Source: a virus
Taxonomy: Duplodnaviria; Heunggongvirae; Uroviricota; Caudoviricetes
IMG/VR virus record: IMGVR_UViG_2648501150_000029
Length of the DNA stretch: 6,469 nt
Strand: one strand, 5' to 3'
In this document: positions 159 to 6,469 of the stretch, in pieces
Numbering within the stretch: position 1 is the first letter of the stretch
How the letters are laid out: every line of letters starts with the position of its first letter
Position numbers and translations under genes: made by a program
Notes under the pieces: model-generated
Seen by the model: only the letters and a program-made list of their open reading frames with translations
The model's database searches: none
Told to the model about the DNA's origin: nothing

Positions 159-273
159 CGGTTAAAAATTCTGAATAAATAATCCTAAGCAAAATTGCTG
201 ACTACACTTAATCTCACGTTCAGAAGAAAAGTGAACGTACTCTCATTCACAACCTAACGATGAGGTCTTGATT

Positions 274-483
274 ATGAATAAAGATGAAGCCGGCGGTAAC
301 TGGAAACAGTTTAAAGGTAAAGTGAAAGAGCAATGGGGCAAACTGACCGATGATGATATGACGATCATTGAAGGAAAACGTGATCAGTTAGTGGGTAAAA
401 TCCAGGAGCGCTACGGTTATCAGAAAGATCAGGCAGAAAAAGAGGTTGATAGTTGGGAAAAACGCCATGATTACCGCTGGTAA
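274..483 (+). CDS. yjbJ: CsbD-like small stress-response protein YjbJ (UPF0337 family), 69 aa
   Basis: ATG at 274 preceded by GAGG (262-265) at 8 nt spacing; stop TAA 481-483. Product MNKDEAGGNWKQFKGKVKEQWGKLTDDDMTIIEGKRDQLVGKIQERYGYQ... matches E. coli YjbJ as I recall it. The ORF-track start at 268 is a TTG two codons upstream and is less likely. Confidence 0.85.
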   Translation: MNKDEAGGNWKQFKGKVKEQWGKLTDDDMTIIEGKRDQLVGKIQERYGYQKDQAEKEVDSWEKRHDYRW

Positions 484-524: not shown

Positions 525-1040
525 TTAGCGAGGTTTCTTTTTCACCTGAATAGAGTGGTCATGATGGCACTGTTCAGGATGACGACACGCTTCTACTTCT
601 ACACATGCTGAACATAATCCATGTGCTTCAATAACATTATGCCGCAGGGCAAAACCCATTTTTGCCGCCAGCGTATGCATGATGTCTTCCACGCCTTCAG
701 CACATTCTTCTTTCACCGCGCCGCAGCGATCGCAAATAAACATGGCTGAAGTATGGGTGGGCTGATCGAACAGATGACAGAGCACATAACTGTTGGTGGA
801 TTCCACCTTATGCACAAAACCTTGTTCAAGCAGAAACTCCAGCGCGCGATAAACCGTTGGCGGCTTGGCTTGCGGTTCAGCTTCGCGCAGCAAATCAAGC
901 AGATCATAAGCGCTGATAGCGCCATCCTGCAGACTCATCAGGCGCAACACTTCGAGACGCTGTGGGGTCAGGCGCACATTACGCTGTGCGCAGATTTTTT
1001 CAGCCTGCGCTAATAACTCCTGCGTTGTGGTCTTTTCCAT
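525..1040 (-). CDS. zur: Zinc uptake regulator Zur (Fur family), 171 aa
   Basis: Minus-strand ORF; ATG at 1040-1038 gives MEKTTTQELLAQAEKICAQRNVRLTPQRLEVLRLM..., with the Fur-family HTH region and CxxC pairs (CDRCG, CSACVEVEAC), ending ...HDHSIQVKKKPR at TAA 527-525. A GAGG lies 6 nt upstream of this ATG. The 252-aa ORF in the track (to 1283) is an in-frame upstream extension without its own RBS. Confidence 0.9.
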   Translation of the reverse strand: MEKTTTQELLAQAEKICAQRNVRLTPQRLEVLRLMSLQDGAISAYDLLDLLREAEPQAKPPTVYRALEFLLEQGFVHKVESTNSYVLCHLFDQPTHTSAMFICDRCGAVKEECAEGVEDIMHTLAAKMGFALRHNVIEAHGLCSACVEVEACRHPEQCHHDHSIQVKKKPR

Positions 1041-1110: not shown

Positions 1111-1356
1111 GGTGTCATGGCTGTCACATTGCCTGATCGCATATTCGTTATGCTATAGTAGCGCCCCCAATTTACCAGATGCTTAAAAAGTCGCCATGCC
1201 AGCAGAATCACACACTGTTTATCCCGCTTACCGTTTCTCGATTGCCCCGATGCTTGATAGGATGTACCGTTTTTGAAAAACAACTAGTTATACACTTTGT
1301 GGGAGCCTATTGGGAACCTGTTATTCTTAGAAAGCATCATTTGCTCATCACTTCAA

Positions 1357-1511: not shown

Positions 1512-2084
1512 ATGTTTTGCGAAGAAAAAGTAGCTCAAATGGCTGCATACCTACTTCTTAAGCGAGGTGGGCGCATGGCATATCTGAAATTGATGAAGTT
1601 GCTCTATCTGTCTAACCGCCAGTCGATTTTGAAGCATGGCAGGATGATCGGCGAAGATAGCCTTTACTCTATGAAATTTGGACCAGTCATGTCGAATACG
1701 CTGAACTTGATTCGCGGTAAGGCTGAAGGCATTGGTGACTACTGGTACAACTTGATAGAGACGAACGGGCATAATGTATCGTTGCGTTCAGATCCGAGGG
1801 AAATGGATGCAGACGAGGTCTTTGATGAATTGAGTCGTGCAGATATCCGGATTTTAGATGAAATCTATTCTCGGTATGGGCATATGAACCGATTTGATCT
1901 CGCAAATATGACGCATTTAGAAAGCGTTTGTCCAGAGTGGCACGATCCTGGCAATTCTCGTAAGCCTATAGACCTGAAAGAAATGCTGATCAGTGAGGGT
2001 AAAAGCGAGGATGAGGCTAATCGCATAATTGGCAAAATGGAAGAATCTCAGAAACTTAAGGAATTTTCTTTGCAATTATCATGA
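1512..2084 (+). CDS. Panacea-domain (DUF4065, GepA/SocA-like) protein; putative antitoxin or sensor component
   Basis: ATG at 1512 with GAGG 8 nt upstream. The N-terminal region (VAQMAAYLLLKRGGRMAYLKLMKLLYLSNRQSILKHGRMIGEDSLYSMKFGPVMSNTLNLIRG) has the K-L-x-K-L-L-Y-L ... F-G-P-V pattern I associate with Panacea/DUF4065 phage-associated proteins. Low GC compared with the flanks. Stop TGA 2082-2084 overlaps the next start. Confidence 0.6.
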   Translation: MFCEEKVAQMAAYLLLKRGGRMAYLKLMKLLYLSNRQSILKHGRMIGEDSLYSMKFGPVMSNTLNLIRGKAEGIGDYWYNLIETNGHNVSLRSDPREMDADEVFDELSRADIRILDEIYSRYGHMNRFDLANMTHLESVCPEWHDPGNSRKPIDLKEMLISEGKSEDEANRIIGKMEESQKLKEFSLQLS

Positions 2085-2500
2085 CGGATTATCAGCCATA
2101 CAGGAAAGGAACTGTGCTTGCCCCAACTGGGCCATGCAATCATCTTCATGTGATTTGTAATGATCCTGTTTATTACCCCGTTAACGATTGTTATTGTGTT
2201 TTAGTTGTTAATATTTCTAGTATCAAGGATGGTGTCCCCCACGATCCGTCTTGCGTCTTGAATTCTGGTGATCATCGCTTTATCAAGCATCCAAGTTATG
2301 TTGTTTACGCTGAAGCTATAATTTGGCGAGTGGATAACATGGTTAGAAAGCAGCGATCGGGTGAGATTTCTGTTCATGATGATATGCCAGAAGCTACATT
2401 CAATAGAATTCTGGACGGTTTTGATATCTCTGATGAAGTTACGCCAAAGAACCTTAAATTTAAAAATAAATATTGCGTATCATCTATTGATGATGAGTAA
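2081..2500 (+). CDS. Hypothetical 139-aa protein translationally coupled to the Panacea gene; candidate toxin/effector partner
   Basis: ATG 2081-2083 overlaps the upstream TGA (ATGA, 4-nt overlap) and has no independent SD, which implies coupling. Stop TAA 2498-2500. No family recognised with confidence; there is a weak by-eye resemblance to Kid/PemK/MazF-type toxins (C-x-C-V-L-V-V-N...SYVVYAEAIIWRVDNMVRKQRSGEIS), unverified. Confidence 0.45.
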   Translation: MTDYQPYRKGTVLAPTGPCNHLHVICNDPVYYPVNDCYCVLVVNISSIKDGVPHDPSCVLNSGDHRFIKHPSYVVYAEAIIWRVDNMVRKQRSGEISVHDDMPEATFNRILDGFDISDEVTPKNLKFKNKYCVSSIDDE

Positions 2501-2539: not shown

Positions 2540-2713
2540 ATGGAAGATCAAAAAGCAACCAAGCCACAGGTTAAGTTCGACACAATGAAAGCATTCGCAG
2601 GTATGGGTGCTGCTGTTGAAGTTCTGATGAAGGCTGCTCCTAATGCGTTCACTCACGCTACTGTCTCTGGTAAAGAGCAGCAGGGTAAGCTTCGTCGTCG
2701 CAAAGCAGCATGA
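2540..2713 (+). CDS. Small hypothetical protein, 57 aa (MEDQKATKPQVKFDTMKAFAGMGAAVEVLMKAAPNAFTHATVSGKEQQGKLRRRKAA)
   Basis: Not in the ORF track (under 60 aa). ATG at 2540 preceded by AGGAG (2529-2533) at 6 nt spacing; stop TGA 2711-2713; followed within 20 nt by an intrinsic terminator. Basic C-terminal tail. No family recognised. Confidence 0.45.
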   Translation: MEDQKATKPQVKFDTMKAFAGMGAAVEVLMKAAPNAFTHATVSGKEQQGKLRRRKAA

Positions 2714-2732
2714 TCATAGCTGGTGCTTTTTG

Positions 2733-2758
2733 AAAACCCGCCTTTAGGCGGGTTTTTT
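2733..2758. terminator. Bidirectional rho-independent terminator
   Basis: aaaaCCCGCC-ttta-GGCGGGtttttt: a 6-bp GC stem (2737-2742 / 2747-2752) flanked by an A-run and a T-run, so it ends in a U-tract on either strand. It lies between the plus-strand small gene (stop 2713) and the convergent minus-strand excisionase-like gene (stop 2761-2763). Confidence 0.7.
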
Positions 2759-2760
2759 AT

Positions 2761-3042
2761 TTAGTGATGTTCTTTGCCCTTCTGTTTGCTTGTTCTGACC
2801 TGTTCCCACTCGATACGTCCTTCTTCTCGTCTTTTGTCTATGTATTCCGCAAGATCCTGAATATTGATGCAACGTTTTGCTTTTTGTGATGTGCCGATGC
2901 GATATGTTGGAACGGGCAACTTACAAGCGTTTGCTTTTGCTTCTGCCGTGGCTGGACTCATGCCAAAGTACTTTTGGCTAACTGCTGAGAGTTCAATGTT
3001 AGGGGTATTGAATTCAGCCATCAGTAAAAACAAGGTGTTCAT
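2761..3042 (-). CDS. Excisionase-like / PrtN-family small DNA-binding regulator, 93 aa
   Basis: Best start is ATG at 3042-3040, preceded by GGAG at 6 nt spacing; the ORF-track start at 3069 is a GTG with no SD. Product MNTLFLLMAEFNTPNIELSAVSQKYFGMSPATAEAKANACKLPVPTYRIGTSQKAKRCINIQDLAEYIDKRRE... has the MNTLFLLMA N-terminus that I associate with PrtN/excisionase-like prophage proteins. It is the last gene of the prophage operon. Confidence 0.6.
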   Translation of the reverse strand: MNTLFLLMAEFNTPNIELSAVSQKYFGMSPATAEAKANACKLPVPTYRIGTSQKAKRCINIQDLAEYIDKRREEGRIEWEQVRTSKQKGKEHH

Positions 3043-3078
3043 AATTTTCTCCATCAAAACCGGCTGCACCCGGGAAAA

Positions 3079-3651
3079 TCATAATTCTGTGCTGGTGGCA
3101 GGAATTAATTTCTGCCAGATAGCGGAAACATATTTTGCCTGATGACGGGCATCAGCCAGGGCGTTGTGCCGTTCGCCATCGAAAGGCATGTCCATTTTGG
3201 GGTCGAATCCGATGGAACGCCCAAGCGTAACGATCGTGCGTACATCGTGGTCATTCCAGTATGCCCACGGGCAGATTTGTCCTGCTCGCTCATAAGCTCC
3301 ACGTAAAATTACGTTGTCGAAGGTGGCTCCGTTACCCCAGACTTTTAAATATTTCGTATTGTCTGCGTGCCGGTTAATGAAATGATTTAGTTCTGAGAGA
3401 GCATCGCTGATCGACAAAGTATCATCAATACAGATTGCAGCTCGTGCTTCAGGGCTTTGTTTCAACCACCACAGGATGGTATCGCCGTCAGGTGTAGCTC
3501 CTTGCCCCATAGCACTTTCCAGGCTAACAACCGTATAGAATTCTTGTCCGATGTCTCCGGTTTCTGGAGTGAAGAACACCGCGCCAATGGAAACGATCGG
3601 TGCATCCTTATTTTTCCCCATCGTCTCAAGGTCGATCATTAAGTTGTTCAT
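3079..3651 (-). CDS. DEDDh-family (DnaQ-like) 3'-5' exonuclease, prophage-encoded, 190 aa
   Basis: ATG at 3651-3649 with AGAGGTG SD 5 nt upstream; it overlaps the upstream stop (TGATG). N-terminal Exo I motif MIDLETMG (D-x-E) and C-terminal H-x-A-x-x-D-A (ERHNALADARH), diagnostic of DEDDh exonucleases. By position this is the full-length counterpart of the ypdJ exonuclease fragment I recall in K-12 CPS-53. Confidence 0.75.
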   Translation of the reverse strand: MNNLMIDLETMGKNKDAPIVSIGAVFFTPETGDIGQEFYTVVSLESAMGQGATPDGDTILWWLKQSPEARAAICIDDTLSISDALSELNHFINRHADNTKYLKVWGNGATFDNVILRGAYERAGQICPWAYWNDHDVRTIVTLGRSIGFDPKMDMPFDGERHNALADARHQAKYVSAIWQKLIPATSTEL

Positions 3652-4460
3652 CACTTCACCTCTTGTGATGGTTTTGCTGCAAAATACTCGATACCTTTAT
3701 CCCAGATAGATTTTATGGTCGACCACGTGACTGGCACTTTAATTTCAATACGTCCGCTCCCGTCACAGGTATCGCAATCATCATCGCCAAAGCATTCCAG
3801 GCAGCTTATAAACGTAGTTTCTGAAAATTCACCGGATAGCGCCCCCTTAGCGCCGTTCTCGGCTGTTAGTCTCTTCGGCACCATAACCCAACCATCCGGA
3901 GTTACCGGAGAGTTGCCAGACAGTGCGTTCTGCAATCGTTCCAGCTTAACGTATTCCTGAACCCTGTTTCCGTCGCACGCCTGAAGCCATTGCACAGCCT
4001 TTTGCGCATCAGTGTGAAAGGCACAAGTGCGACCGTCATCAAATTGCATTTCGTAGAGGTCAGCAACCTGTTTAAACTGCGTTTGTGGCAACTTGTAAGC
4101 CTGGCTTGCAGGTACGGCACCATAGAGCATGGCAGCGCGGCAGGCGTTCCAGCCTTCATCAAAACCGACTATGCCATTATTTAAAGACGGACGAGCATCT
4201 GGCACCACCGGCACTGGCTTGGCTATATATAGCGGCTGAACATACCAGCCCTTTGATAACCAACTGTCAGCAATGTTTTTACTCCTGGTTATTGCCGGAA
4301 TACCTAAGCCATTGTCTGAATGCAGCCATGCCACCGGATCCTCTTCCAGCGATGCCAGAGCAATTTCATAAGCACGGCGCTCAACATTGTCTCGCACGTC
4401 CATGCTGCTGATTCGTTCTTTGATTTCTTTAATCAGTTCTTTATCGGTAAATGTGGTCAT
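3651..4460 (-). CDS. Hypothetical prophage protein, 269 aa, with C-terminal CxxC / CxxCxGxG zinc-ribbon-like motif (in the YfdT position)
   Basis: ATG at 4460-4458 with GGAGG/GGAG upstream; overlaps the upstream stop (TAATG). C-terminus ...TTFISCLECFGDDDCDTCDGSGRIEIKV contains CLEC and CDTCDGSG (CxxCxGxG, the DnaJ-type zinc-finger signature). Stop TGA 3653-3651. Function unknown. Confidence 0.6.
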   Translation of the reverse strand: MTTFTDKELIKEIKERISSMDVRDNVERRAYEIALASLEEDPVAWLHSDNGLGIPAITRSKNIADSWLSKGWYVQPLYIAKPVPVVPDARPSLNNGIVGFDEGWNACRAAMLYGAVPASQAYKLPQTQFKQVADLYEMQFDDGRTCAFHTDAQKAVQWLQACDGNRVQEYVKLERLQNALSGNSPVTPDGWVMVPKRLTAENGAKGALSGEFSETTFISCLECFGDDDCDTCDGSGRIEIKVPVTWSTIKSIWDKGIEYFAAKPSQEVK

Positions 4461-4822
4461 TATGCTCCAGCCTCCGGTGCTTTTGGCATTACTGCCCAGT
4501 GAGTGATGTTGACGTTTTCAAGGTCCCCGACCTGAAATGTCCACTGCCATTCTCCGGTTTCTTTTTGCCCCCATGTATACCAGAGAGAACGCCAGCCAAT
4601 CAGCCAGCCTTCTCCATTAGCATCAAATAACAGAACACTTTCATTCGCTGGCGGCAGTTCAGCTGACACTGGTATTACTTTGTTTTCCAGTGCTGCACAT
4701 TTAGCTTCAAGCGCATCAAATTTACGCACCAGGTATTCAGCATCCGTTTCATTCACTTTCAGATCTCGCGGTACACATTTCCCGCGAAGAAATCCTTCCA
4801 TTTCGAAAACATTCATGCGCAT
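4460..4822 (-). CDS. yfdS: YfdS-like prophage protein, 120 aa
   Basis: ATG at 4822-4820 with GGAG 8 nt upstream; overlaps the yfdR stop by 10 nt. A second in-frame ATG at 4816 forms an ATGA overlap with that stop. Assignment rests on the yfdQ-yfdR-yfdS order and the matching 120-aa length recalled for K-12; no motif recognised. Confidence 0.6.
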   Translation of the reverse strand: MRMNVFEMEGFLRGKCVPRDLKVNETDAEYLVRKFDALEAKCAALENKVIPVSAELPPANESVLLFDANGEGWLIGWRSLWYTWGQKETGEWQWTFQVGDLENVNITHWAVMPKAPEAGA

Positions 4823-5349
4823 TTGCGTAACTCCGATAATTCGTTAAAGCGTTCCATAAACATCCCGTAGGCATGGCCTGGAGCCAGTGGAATCACGTTG
4901 AACATCTCTGTTGCCGGGATACCTTCCAGTACAGGCCAGAAAGAGCCATCATCAAGCCCGAGATCGCGGCGTTCGGTTGCCAGCATGATGAGATCGGCAT
5001 ATTTCACGGGCGTACTCATAACCGGTGGTAACCCGTATTTCTCACGGATTACGGCGTCTATTTTTTCTTCCATCCGTTTATAGTCAGGAAGAAGGCGTTT
5101 CAGTGGTGCGGGAATGTCCTGGCAATACGCTTCTGTTGCATCATGCATTAACGCTTCAAAAGCAAATTCCTGCGGCACCAGCTGGCTGCAAAGAACCGCA
5201 TGTTGGGCGACGCTGTAGAAGTGCGAAAGATGACCGGCAAAGCGACAGATATTTGAAAGGGAAACCGCGATATCGTTAATATCGATGTCGTCTTTATTTA
5301 TCCTGTCATAATAAAAATGCTTCCCAGAAAAAGTTTTGATAAATGACAT
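4813..5349 (-). CDS. yfdR: HD-domain phosphohydrolase (5'-deoxynucleotidase-like), YfdR, 178 aa
   Basis: Best start is ATG 5349-5347 (MSFIKTFSGKHFYYD...) with GGAG 6 nt upstream; the ORF-track start at 5376 is a GTG without SD. HD-domain signature visible: ...H-x-x-x-H... (GHLSHFYSVAQH) and ALMHDATEAY (the H-D dyad). The 178-aa length matches K-12 YfdR as recalled. Confidence 0.8.
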   Translation of the reverse strand: MSFIKTFSGKHFYYDRINKDDIDINDIAVSLSNICRFAGHLSHFYSVAQHAVLCSQLVPQEFAFEALMHDATEAYCQDIPAPLKRLLPDYKRMEEKIDAVIREKYGLPPVMSTPVKYADLIMLATERRDLGLDDGSFWPVLEGIPATEMFNVIPLAPGHAYGMFMERFNELSELRKCA

Positions 5350-5442
5350 TTTGTTCTCCACGTATATGCGCTGCACCGCGCTGAATTCTGGTAAAAAGAA
5401 TCCCTCACCATCCGGCGATTATTGAGTAAATTACGTTTCCAT

Positions 5443-5464
5443 AAATGCCCCCGCAGGGGCATTT
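5443..5464. other. Perfect 22-bp palindrome / stable hairpin between yfdQ and yfdR
   Basis: aaatgcccc-cgca-ggggcattt: a 9-bp perfect inverted repeat with a 4-nt loop. It lies 13 nt downstream of the yfdQ stop and about 85 nt upstream of the yfdR start on the minus-strand transcript. No clean U-tract follows on either strand, so it is not a canonical intrinsic terminator. Confidence 0.5.
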
Positions 5465-5476
5465 GCAGTAATGAAA

Positions 5477-6301
5477 TCAGGCGGTGAAAGTACCAATAAA
5501 GGTTTCTACTTTGCTGTCCTTGAATTTCTCAACAAGCAGATCACGAAATTCGTTAGCCATTTCTTCCTGCACCGCCTCCAGCTGAATAATGCGCAGAACC
5601 AGTACAGGACGATCGCCAGTGATAATGCTGAGGCGTAATTTAAACGGACGTTCTTTCAGACCTTCAAACGGAACGCATTTAAATTCAAATGCCACTGGCA
5701 TAATGTCTTTGGTCTTCGCTTCGACAGACTCCATCAGGGAGCGTTTGCCGCTGAAGTCATTGTCTTCAAAATCAGCGGTCTGGTTCGCTTCAATTGTGAT
5801 TTTACGGATCGCCGCAGCCGCTTTGGTTGCCTGAATGGCGTCACCATTAGCATCAAAGCCCACAAGGTAGTCTGCCCAGTCTTCAATCCATTCTGCCAGT
5901 GACTTCTGGGAGTTACGCTCGCCATTAACAGACAACAGAGCAGAGAACGGTGCTGTCTTTTTCAGTTTGAGAGTGGCGGTGTTATCTGCGTGACCTGGTT
6001 CATCAATAGTACCCAGGTTAAGCACACTGACGGCTCGCATATTATCGGCATCGATAAAGCAGCGGGTGCCTTCATCTGCAAGATCTTTAGAATAACGGGT
6101 AAAGTCATCGATGCTGGCAGTGGAAAGTGCACCACGGAAACGGAAACGATTTAAATTAAATTTTTCCAGATCATGAATGCGGAAATTCTCAGGCAATGCC
6201 ACAGCATCGGCACCAATCTTACTGATAATTTCATTAACACCCTGAGCAGAAATAAGGGCATGGATTTGATTAATTGCGGTTGAGTCTAAGTTCTGAGACA
6301 T
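5477..6301 (-). CDS. yfdQ: DUF2303-family prophage protein YfdQ, 274 aa
   Basis: ATG at 6301-6299 with GAGG 8 nt upstream; stop TGA 5479-5477. Product [70 protein letters not shown]... matches in length and N-terminus what I recall of E. coli CPS-53 YfdQ. Identity is from recall. Confidence 0.75.
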
Positions 6302-6366
6302 AATAAGTCCTCACTATATTAAGATATTCAGTGATGAGATAAATAATCAGTTAATTAAGAACGATA

Positions 6367-6469
6367 TTAATGACCTGCTGCGCGGAGTTTTCCGTCAGGT
6401 TCACCGGCAAGAGTCAGTAATTGTCCCTGGTCTTCCTGCAGAATAGTCAGGCGACCACCGCGATTGACA
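6367..6469 (-). CDS. 3' end of the upstream prophage gene (YfdP-like by position), 5'-truncated by the window edge
   Basis: Minus-strand open frame running into the window end, terminating ...VNRGGRLTILQEDQGQLLTLAGEPDGKLRAAGH* at TAA 6369-6367. Named only by position upstream of yfdQ. Confidence 0.4.
   Translation of the reverse strand, partial: VNRGGRLTILQEDQGQLLTLAGEPDGKLRAAGH

Follow-up and report, generated by a model that had tools for sequence, protein, structure and literature searches.

Excisionases such as lambda Xis, P2 Cox and the MerR-like proteins are small winged-helix recombination directionality factors (RDFs), and some of them combine excision with promoter control. P2 Cox is both RDF and repressor and exerts this control at Pc, while TorI acts in the same double manner at intS. 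In lambda attP lies beyond int, and integration therefore leaves xis next to int. The end of the CPS-53 (KplE1) prophage of E. coli K-12 reads yfdP-yfdQ-yfdR-yfdS-yfdT-ypdJ-torI-attR, TorI being a protein of 66 aa that also inhibits TorR. PrtN of P. aeruginosa, the founding member of the Pfam family PF11112, is reportedly a transcription activator that acts on P-box promoters of the pyocin genes under control of the repressor PrtR (Matsui 1993, as cited in PMC4482086).

Members of PF11112 also occur in elements inserted in dusA. Farrugia et al. 2015 defined the dusA-specific integrases and noted that 60 of 94 dusA islands have a prtN homolog, its role then being open (PMC4482086). Durand et al. 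2021 named the PF11112 gene rdfN and showed that IMEVchUSA3 no longer excises once rdfN is deleted, and that Int and RdfN are all that a mini-element at E. coli dusA needs to excise (PMC8409611). In the same study rdfN seems ubiquitous in dusA-specific elements, and the integrase promoter Pint of IMEVchUSA3 is constitutive, with no regulatory role of RdfN reported (PMC8409611). Phage 1720a-02 integrates 100 bp into dusA and its excision needs Int (PMC6328086). The trio of PrtN-type RDF, dusA integrase and dusA att site is an established module (PMC4482086, PMC8409611).

Here we analyse a stretch of 6,469 nucleotides, hereafter the window, in which the minus-strand gene at 2761..3042 had been proposed to be PrtN-like rather than TorI-like and to mark a mosaic prophage end. 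Sequence comparison indicates that this gene very probably encodes an RdfN-type RDF (excisionase) of the PF11112 winged-helix family, belonging to a lambdoid prophage that is integrated in dusA and uses a dusA-specific tyrosine integrase. The assignment draws on the list of open reading frames, the PF11112 and PHROG 1300 matches, the similarity to an RdfN-type protein of V. cholerae and a structural model.

The gene is an intact ORF of 93 aa with its ATG at 3042 and its TAA at 2761-2763, and the translation begins MNTLFLLMAEF. We ruled out a start at the in-frame GTG at 3069, which would give 102 aa. Since the ATG is preceded by the Shine-Dalgarno motif GGAG 6 nt upstream, the GTG has none, and the MNT start is nearly invariant (19 of 21 alignment rows), the coordinates of the original prediction are exact. 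At the same coordinates the closest genome carries WP_001093917.1, named 'pyocin activator PrtN family protein' by RefSeq. In a Pfam profile search the protein matches PF11112 (PrtN) over profile positions 1-73 of 74 with E=3e-23 and 82 bits, the cut-off of this family being 24.2 bits, and it also matches PHROG 1300 'excisionase' with E=1e-39. Both matches bear out the proposal of a PrtN-like protein in the position of an excisionase. At E<=0.01 PF11112 is the only Pfam family found, with no match to lambda Xis, AlpA, HTH_17 or Tn916-Xis; searches of NCBIfam, of PADLOC and of PDB sequences returned nothing for this protein.

V. cholerae P0027, an RdfN-type protein that may differ from the IMEVchUSA3 allele, is 61% identical to the window protein over all of its 76 residues (E=3e-33). 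The start of the P0027 gene matches the published IMEVchUSA3 rdfN primer prtNEcoRIf exactly and the deletion primer nearly exactly. It is located in an SGI1-like island beside zur, together with an MpsA-type Integrase_1 gene. With 93 residues the window protein is 17 residues longer than the 76-aa island RdfN, the difference being a helical and basic C-terminal extension that the island protein lacks. The N-terminus and the wing residues are kept across the family in an alignment of 21 sequences.

The same alignment served as input for a confident AlphaFold2 model of the 93-aa protein (mean pLDDT 89, pTM 0.75). The model shows an N-terminal helix, a strand-helix-helix-wing core comprising residues 15-60 and a long C-terminal helix (residues 61-91). 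Compared with predicted viral structures (BFVD), its best match is a putative Klebsiella phage excisionase with a target-normalised TM of 0.86, an rmsd of 1.9 Å and E=4e-3; the next matches are HTH proteins of the MerR-like and excisionase types and other PrtN-annotated proteins. A fold search of the PDB yielded no significant match; P2 Cox came first at E=0.19, and the putative Klebsiella excisionase 2kvv was 20th at E=0.72. The predicted fold is thus compatible with an excisionase-type winged helix. With lambda Xis, P2 Cox and the MerR-like excisionases the window protein has in common its small size and, by prediction, a beta-helix-helix-wing core, whereas at the sequence level none of these matches it. 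TorI and lambda Xis are both missing among the best 50 PDB fold matches, which lends no support to a fold-level kinship with these two.

The window is a piece of E. coli chromosome that runs through yjbJ and zur into prophage DNA. The host genes are yjbJ (CsbD family; 268..483, plus strand), assigned from the list of ORFs and the RefSeq annotation of the closest genome, and zur (zinc uptake repressor; 525..1040, minus strand), assigned from the annotation of that genome. This closest genome, strain MS1679, is 99.4% identical over the full window length and has the order lexA-dinF-yjbJ-zur, about 38 kb of phage genes, and a 365-aa tyrosine integrase adjoining dusA. The window is one end of a lambdoid prophage of about 38 kb that occupies the 5' end of dusA, beside zur. 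The different chromosomal location that had been suggested is thereby confirmed, the element lying at dusA and not at argW.

To define the host/prophage junction we compared the attL of the window (gattgccccgATGCTTGATaggatgtacc), the attL of MB53, the attP of phage SKA5 (cattgctcctATGCTCGATaggatgtacc) and the attR by int in MS1679 (cattgctcctATGCTTGACtggacggac). The crossover core of attL is ATGCTTGA at 1250..1257; host identity ends at 1257, and the sequence from 1258 on is phage-only. Positions 1041-1257 are 99-100% identical to the start of an intact dusA (e.g. that of ABU 83972). Comparison with intact dusA further identifies the displaced native 5' end of the host gene, MPAESHTVYPAYRFSIAPMLD, which integration has left at attL (1196..1257, plus strand). 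A loss of attL had been suspected, as the window lacks a stretch of about 1.6 kb with yjbM and a different dusA remnant that most relatives have, and its own dusA remnant seemed foreign. We rejected this deletion reading and regard attL as intact because in 1,123 of 5,426 complete E. coli genomes zur natively adjoins, directly and without yjbL/yjbM, a dusA with exactly such a 5' end. In this lineage lacking yjbM after zur, to which the host belongs and which makes up roughly one-fifth of E. coli genomes, the N-terminus of DusA differs (MPAESHTVYPAYRFSIAPMLD...), and the zur flank of the window is only 94% identical to that of yjbM-carrying strains. The divergent flank and the different N-terminus suggest that the whole zur-dusA interval may have been replaced long ago in the yjbM-less lineage.

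As the integrase lies outside the window, its pairing with the PrtN-like gene was read from near-identical elements. MS1679, SKA5 and mEp460 all encode a dusA-specific tyrosine integrase as partner; its gene is located at the far end of the prophage and, in the phage genome, just across attP. The RdfN homolog of SKA5 is 100% identical to the window protein and that of mEp460 97%. Both phages show the order tail fibre genes, dinI (minus strand), int (minus strand), the dusA 5' copy with attP, plus-strand cargo, the PrtN-like gene (minus strand), the exonuclease gene (minus strand) and early genes, with int and rdfN 1.7 kb apart in SKA5. Because attP sits between them in the phage genome, int and rdfN come to lie at opposite ends of the prophage. 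This arrangement differs from that of lambda, where xis and int remain neighbours.

The pairing extends well beyond these relatives. With tblastn against 50,697 phage records the PrtN-like protein was found in 106 records and the integrase in 183, and at least 20 phage records are common to both lists among the matches listed. A dusA-family integrase with 30-99% identity (tblastn) is present in all seven sampled loci that bear an rdfN homolog, namely mEp460, SKA5, EKP1 (recorded under an Elizabethkingia host), Morganella IME1369_02, Ralstonia UAM5, Burkholderia AH2 and an Acinetobacter contig. Most of the seven have a dusA 5' mimic between int and the rdfN homolog, and the Acinetobacter homolog adjoins dusA itself. 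Phage 1720a-02 likewise carries a copy of the rdfN homolog, with 98.7% identity. Within E. coli the gene was found in 741 of 5,426 complete genomes (about 14%), and in the five genomes inspected, down to 81.5% nucleotide identity, it is always at the zur-(yjbM)-dusA-remnant locus.

The window element resembles IMEVchUSA3-type elements in several respects. The RDFs of both belong to PF11112 and have a dusA-family integrase as partner; both kinds of element integrate into the 5' end of dusA, for which they bring a substitute, and once integrated neither has its RDF gene next to int. They differ in the setting of the RDF gene, which in IMEVchUSA3 has an AcaCD-responsive promoter and belongs to an IncC-mobilisable island, whereas the window gene is part of a lambdoid early block, presumably under CI/SOS control.

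The comparison with CPS-53 defines where the two prophages part. Positions 4343-6469 of the window have 96% nucleotide identity to CPS-53, a stretch that comprises part of yfdP at one side and the first 39 codons of yfdT at the other. Because this identity stops abruptly at 4343, the mosaic junction, the RDF end of the prophage is mosaic, as had been proposed. TorI and the window protein occupy the same slot as last gene of a yfdP-yfdQ-yfdR-yfdS early block, both genes are at the prophage end opposite the integrase, and both products are predicted to be small winged-helix RDFs. The statement that the gene holds the same position as torI needs one correction: it is indeed the last gene of the leftward block, but it is not the last before the att site, since three plus-strand cargo ORFs (1512-2713) separate it from attL. 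K-12 TorI is a different and shorter protein, as stated in the original prediction. BLASTP gives no alignment between the two at E<=100, and in Pfam TorI has a sub-threshold HTH_17 match only. Inhibition of TorR, the second role of TorI, is not known for the window protein.

The partners differ as well. The 365-aa dusA-type integrase has no meaningful similarity to IntS; its catalytic domain is all that Pfam recognizes, while P4-type arm-binding and central domains are additionally present in IntS. The att sites are dusA and argW, respectively. The view that a swapped RDF goes with a swapped integrase and att site is thus upheld, and the two findings named beforehand as speaking against it, an alignment to TorI or an element lacking an integrase, were not obtained: TorI does not align, and in MS1679 the integrase is next to dusA. 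Since the trio is already an established module, the swap is an exchange between known types and not a new one. The junction interval 4343-4460 falls inside a 269-aa ORF (3651-4460), whose first 39 codons are common with yfdT and whose remainder is unrelated to the CPS-53 region.

Upstream of the rdfN homolog are a 3'-5' exonuclease gene (3079..3654, minus strand) and then, at 3651..6301 on the same strand, genes for the 269-aa protein, a yfdS-like protein, a yfdR-like 5'-deoxynucleotidase and a yfdQ-like DUF2303 protein, which make up the rest of the visible early block. From 6301 to 2761 the minus-strand genes are tightly packed, with gaps of at most 36 nt except for one of 127 nt, or of 100 nt with the GTG at 5376 taken as the yfdR start. 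The gap between exonuclease gene and rdfN homolog is 36 nt and holds no predicted minus-strand terminator, and none is predicted anywhere inside the block 6301-2761. In MS1679 the leftward block extends up to the region beside a CI-like (S24/XRE) repressor.

We propose that int would be expressed from its own promoter next to attR, in analogy to the constitutive Pint of IMEVchUSA3, while rdfN would be made only on derepression of the leftward block controlled by the CI-type repressor, for example in the SOS response. RdfN may then bind one att arm and switch the integrase from integration (attP x attB) to excision (attL x attR). This would yield the circular phage with the order int, attP with the phage copy of the dusA 5' end, cargo and rdfN. 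If this holds, the place of rdfN as last gene of a CI-controlled block would answer a question left from 2021, namely what drives rdfN in prophage-like dusA elements.

The att site itself carries short repeats. In the window two tandem 7-bp repeats (GGGAGCC, TATT, GGGAACC; 1301..1318, plus strand) probably represent arm-type sites of the integrase on the P' arm. Across 12.4 kb of SKA5 sequence, GGGAACC occurs in 4 copies, all inside 232 bp spanning attP. Altogether the phage att site has five copies of the 7-bp word distributed 3+2 over both arms (4387-4421 and 4613-4619 of locus L004). Three of them, one inverted and two direct, are found between the start of int and the phage dusA', and the remaining two are in tandem on the other arm, 11 bp apart. 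The 3+2 layout is common to four relatives although the word differs in each, the others being GGTGTAC in EKP1, GGTGTCC in Morganella IME1369_02 and GGTGTGC/GGCACAC in Ralstonia UAM5. It resembles the five Int arm-type sites of lambda, and the specificity changes alongside the integrase. RDF sites sit on one arm only. We had considered the GGGAACC repeats as RdfN sites and rejected this, as five copies on both arms (3+2) are more like lambda Int arm-type sites; the heptamers are probably bound by the integrase, judging by this analogy. We located no RdfN binding site. A weak IHF-like site, AAACAACTAGTTA, is seen at window 1278-1290, between the core and the tandem repeat pair.

The compact architecture of this region bears on whether the protein has a second function, acting as RDF and also repressing or activating the promoters of the att arm, i.e. 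those of int and the phage-borne dusA'. From the int start to the dusA' start there are only 88 bp, and because this stretch holds arm-type repeats, att-arm binding and promoter control must overlap. Such a double role has precedents in TorI and P2 Cox, the latter also being the best, though weak, structural neighbour of the model in the PDB (E=0.19), and the 17-residue helical extension, which the 76-aa island RdfN does not have, could provide for it. Against this stand the missing RdfN binding sites and the constitutive Pint of IMEVchUSA3, for which a regulatory role of RdfN was not reported (PMC8409611), and we consider a dual function quite unlikely compared with an RDF acting in excision. 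A more specific version, likewise rather unlikely, starts from the fact that the att arm is squeezed into about 210 bp together with the int promoter, the phage dusA promoter and the 5' coding part: the RdfN of lambdoid dusA prophages might also control int and host dusA during induction, perhaps via the phage-specific C-terminal helix.

The annotation of the protein points to another function, namely that of a PrtN-like transcription activator of late, lysis or cargo genes of the phage without any role in excision. Its Pfam family is named after the pyocin activator, as is the RefSeq entry, the founding member PrtN does activate transcription, and the role of the homologs in dusA islands was left open by Farrugia et al. 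in 2015 (PMC4482086). However, the window protein is much closer to the RdfN-type P0027, and the gene belongs to an integrase/att module in a prophage with CI-like and Q-like regulators, whereas the context of PrtN is pyocin genes. A Q antiterminator and a late region of lambda type are encoded by the prophage itself, the family co-occurs with dusA-type integrases in phages as well as in islands without late genes, and no other candidate excisionase is present in the annotated records of the closest relatives. An activator without excision role is thus very unlikely, and the RdfN-type RDF is the reading we retain.

That the gene is an inert relic of a defective prophage has next to no probability: the adjoining exonuclease gene has an internal stop in the closest genome MS1679 and the element of O157:H7 F6321 is visibly decayed, but the window ORF and the window's own exonuclease gene are intact, SKA5, a phage deposited as a complete genome record, encodes a 100% identical protein, and throughout the family the N-terminus and the wing residues show conservation. 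The exonuclease belongs to the Rv2179c-like DEDDh type (PF16473, E=4e-75) and its gene is immediately upstream of rdfN. It is intact in the window, interrupted by an internal stop in MS1679 (L001, 23079-23651), split in SKA5 and truncated in O157:H7 F6321, and appears from these sequences to be an often-inactivated gene.

The finding is correct but ordinary, since this combination of helper, integrase and insertion site is known from earlier work. The gene is very common, and the result matters little beyond correct annotation. The element is better described as a dusA-integrating lambdoid prophage with a CPS-53-like early block and a different integration/excision module. It provides a clear case of RDF, integrase and att modules being exchanged together between otherwise similar lambdoid phages. 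About 14% of complete E. coli genomes carry prophages of this type, Stx-phage relatives included, and knowing the excision factor helps the engineering of non-excisable lysogens in such strains.

Between attL and the rdfN homolog the prophage carries cargo. A Panacea-domain (SocA-like) antitoxin gene (1512..2084, plus strand; PF13274, E=2e-19) is followed by a 139-aa ORF (2081..2500, plus strand; PHROG 19071, function unknown), the stop of the first overlapping the start of the second (ATGA). The 139-aa ORF has no Pfam or PADLOC match; from its position it is the putative cognate toxin. Together, the genes at 1512-2500 are likely a toxin-antitoxin pair of the PanA type whose toxin is unclassified. 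In strain A10 a YafO-family toxin pair takes this place, and in O157:H7 F6321 and mEp460 it is occupied by an unrelated ORF of 177 aa. Since the cargo differs between strains, the slot next to attP is a variable cargo (moron) site. In the V. cholerae SGI1-like island with RdfN (L007, 7265-17069), also flanked by a Fur-family (zur-like) gene, the cargo consists of an OLD-family ATPase/TOPRIM gene and then a UvrD-like helicase gene, a Gabija-like pair.

The last plus-strand ORF before rdfN is a conserved phage ORF of 57 aa (2540..2713; PHROG 2741, function unknown, E=8e-36), which is found at the same place in mEp460 and SKA5. It is kept in all relatives inspected except strain A10, whatever cargo adjoins it. 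This ORF is convergent with rdfN and is followed by a strong GC-rich hairpin between the two genes (2732..2757), which has the form of a canonical terminator for the plus-strand ORFs and a weak T-tract on the minus strand.
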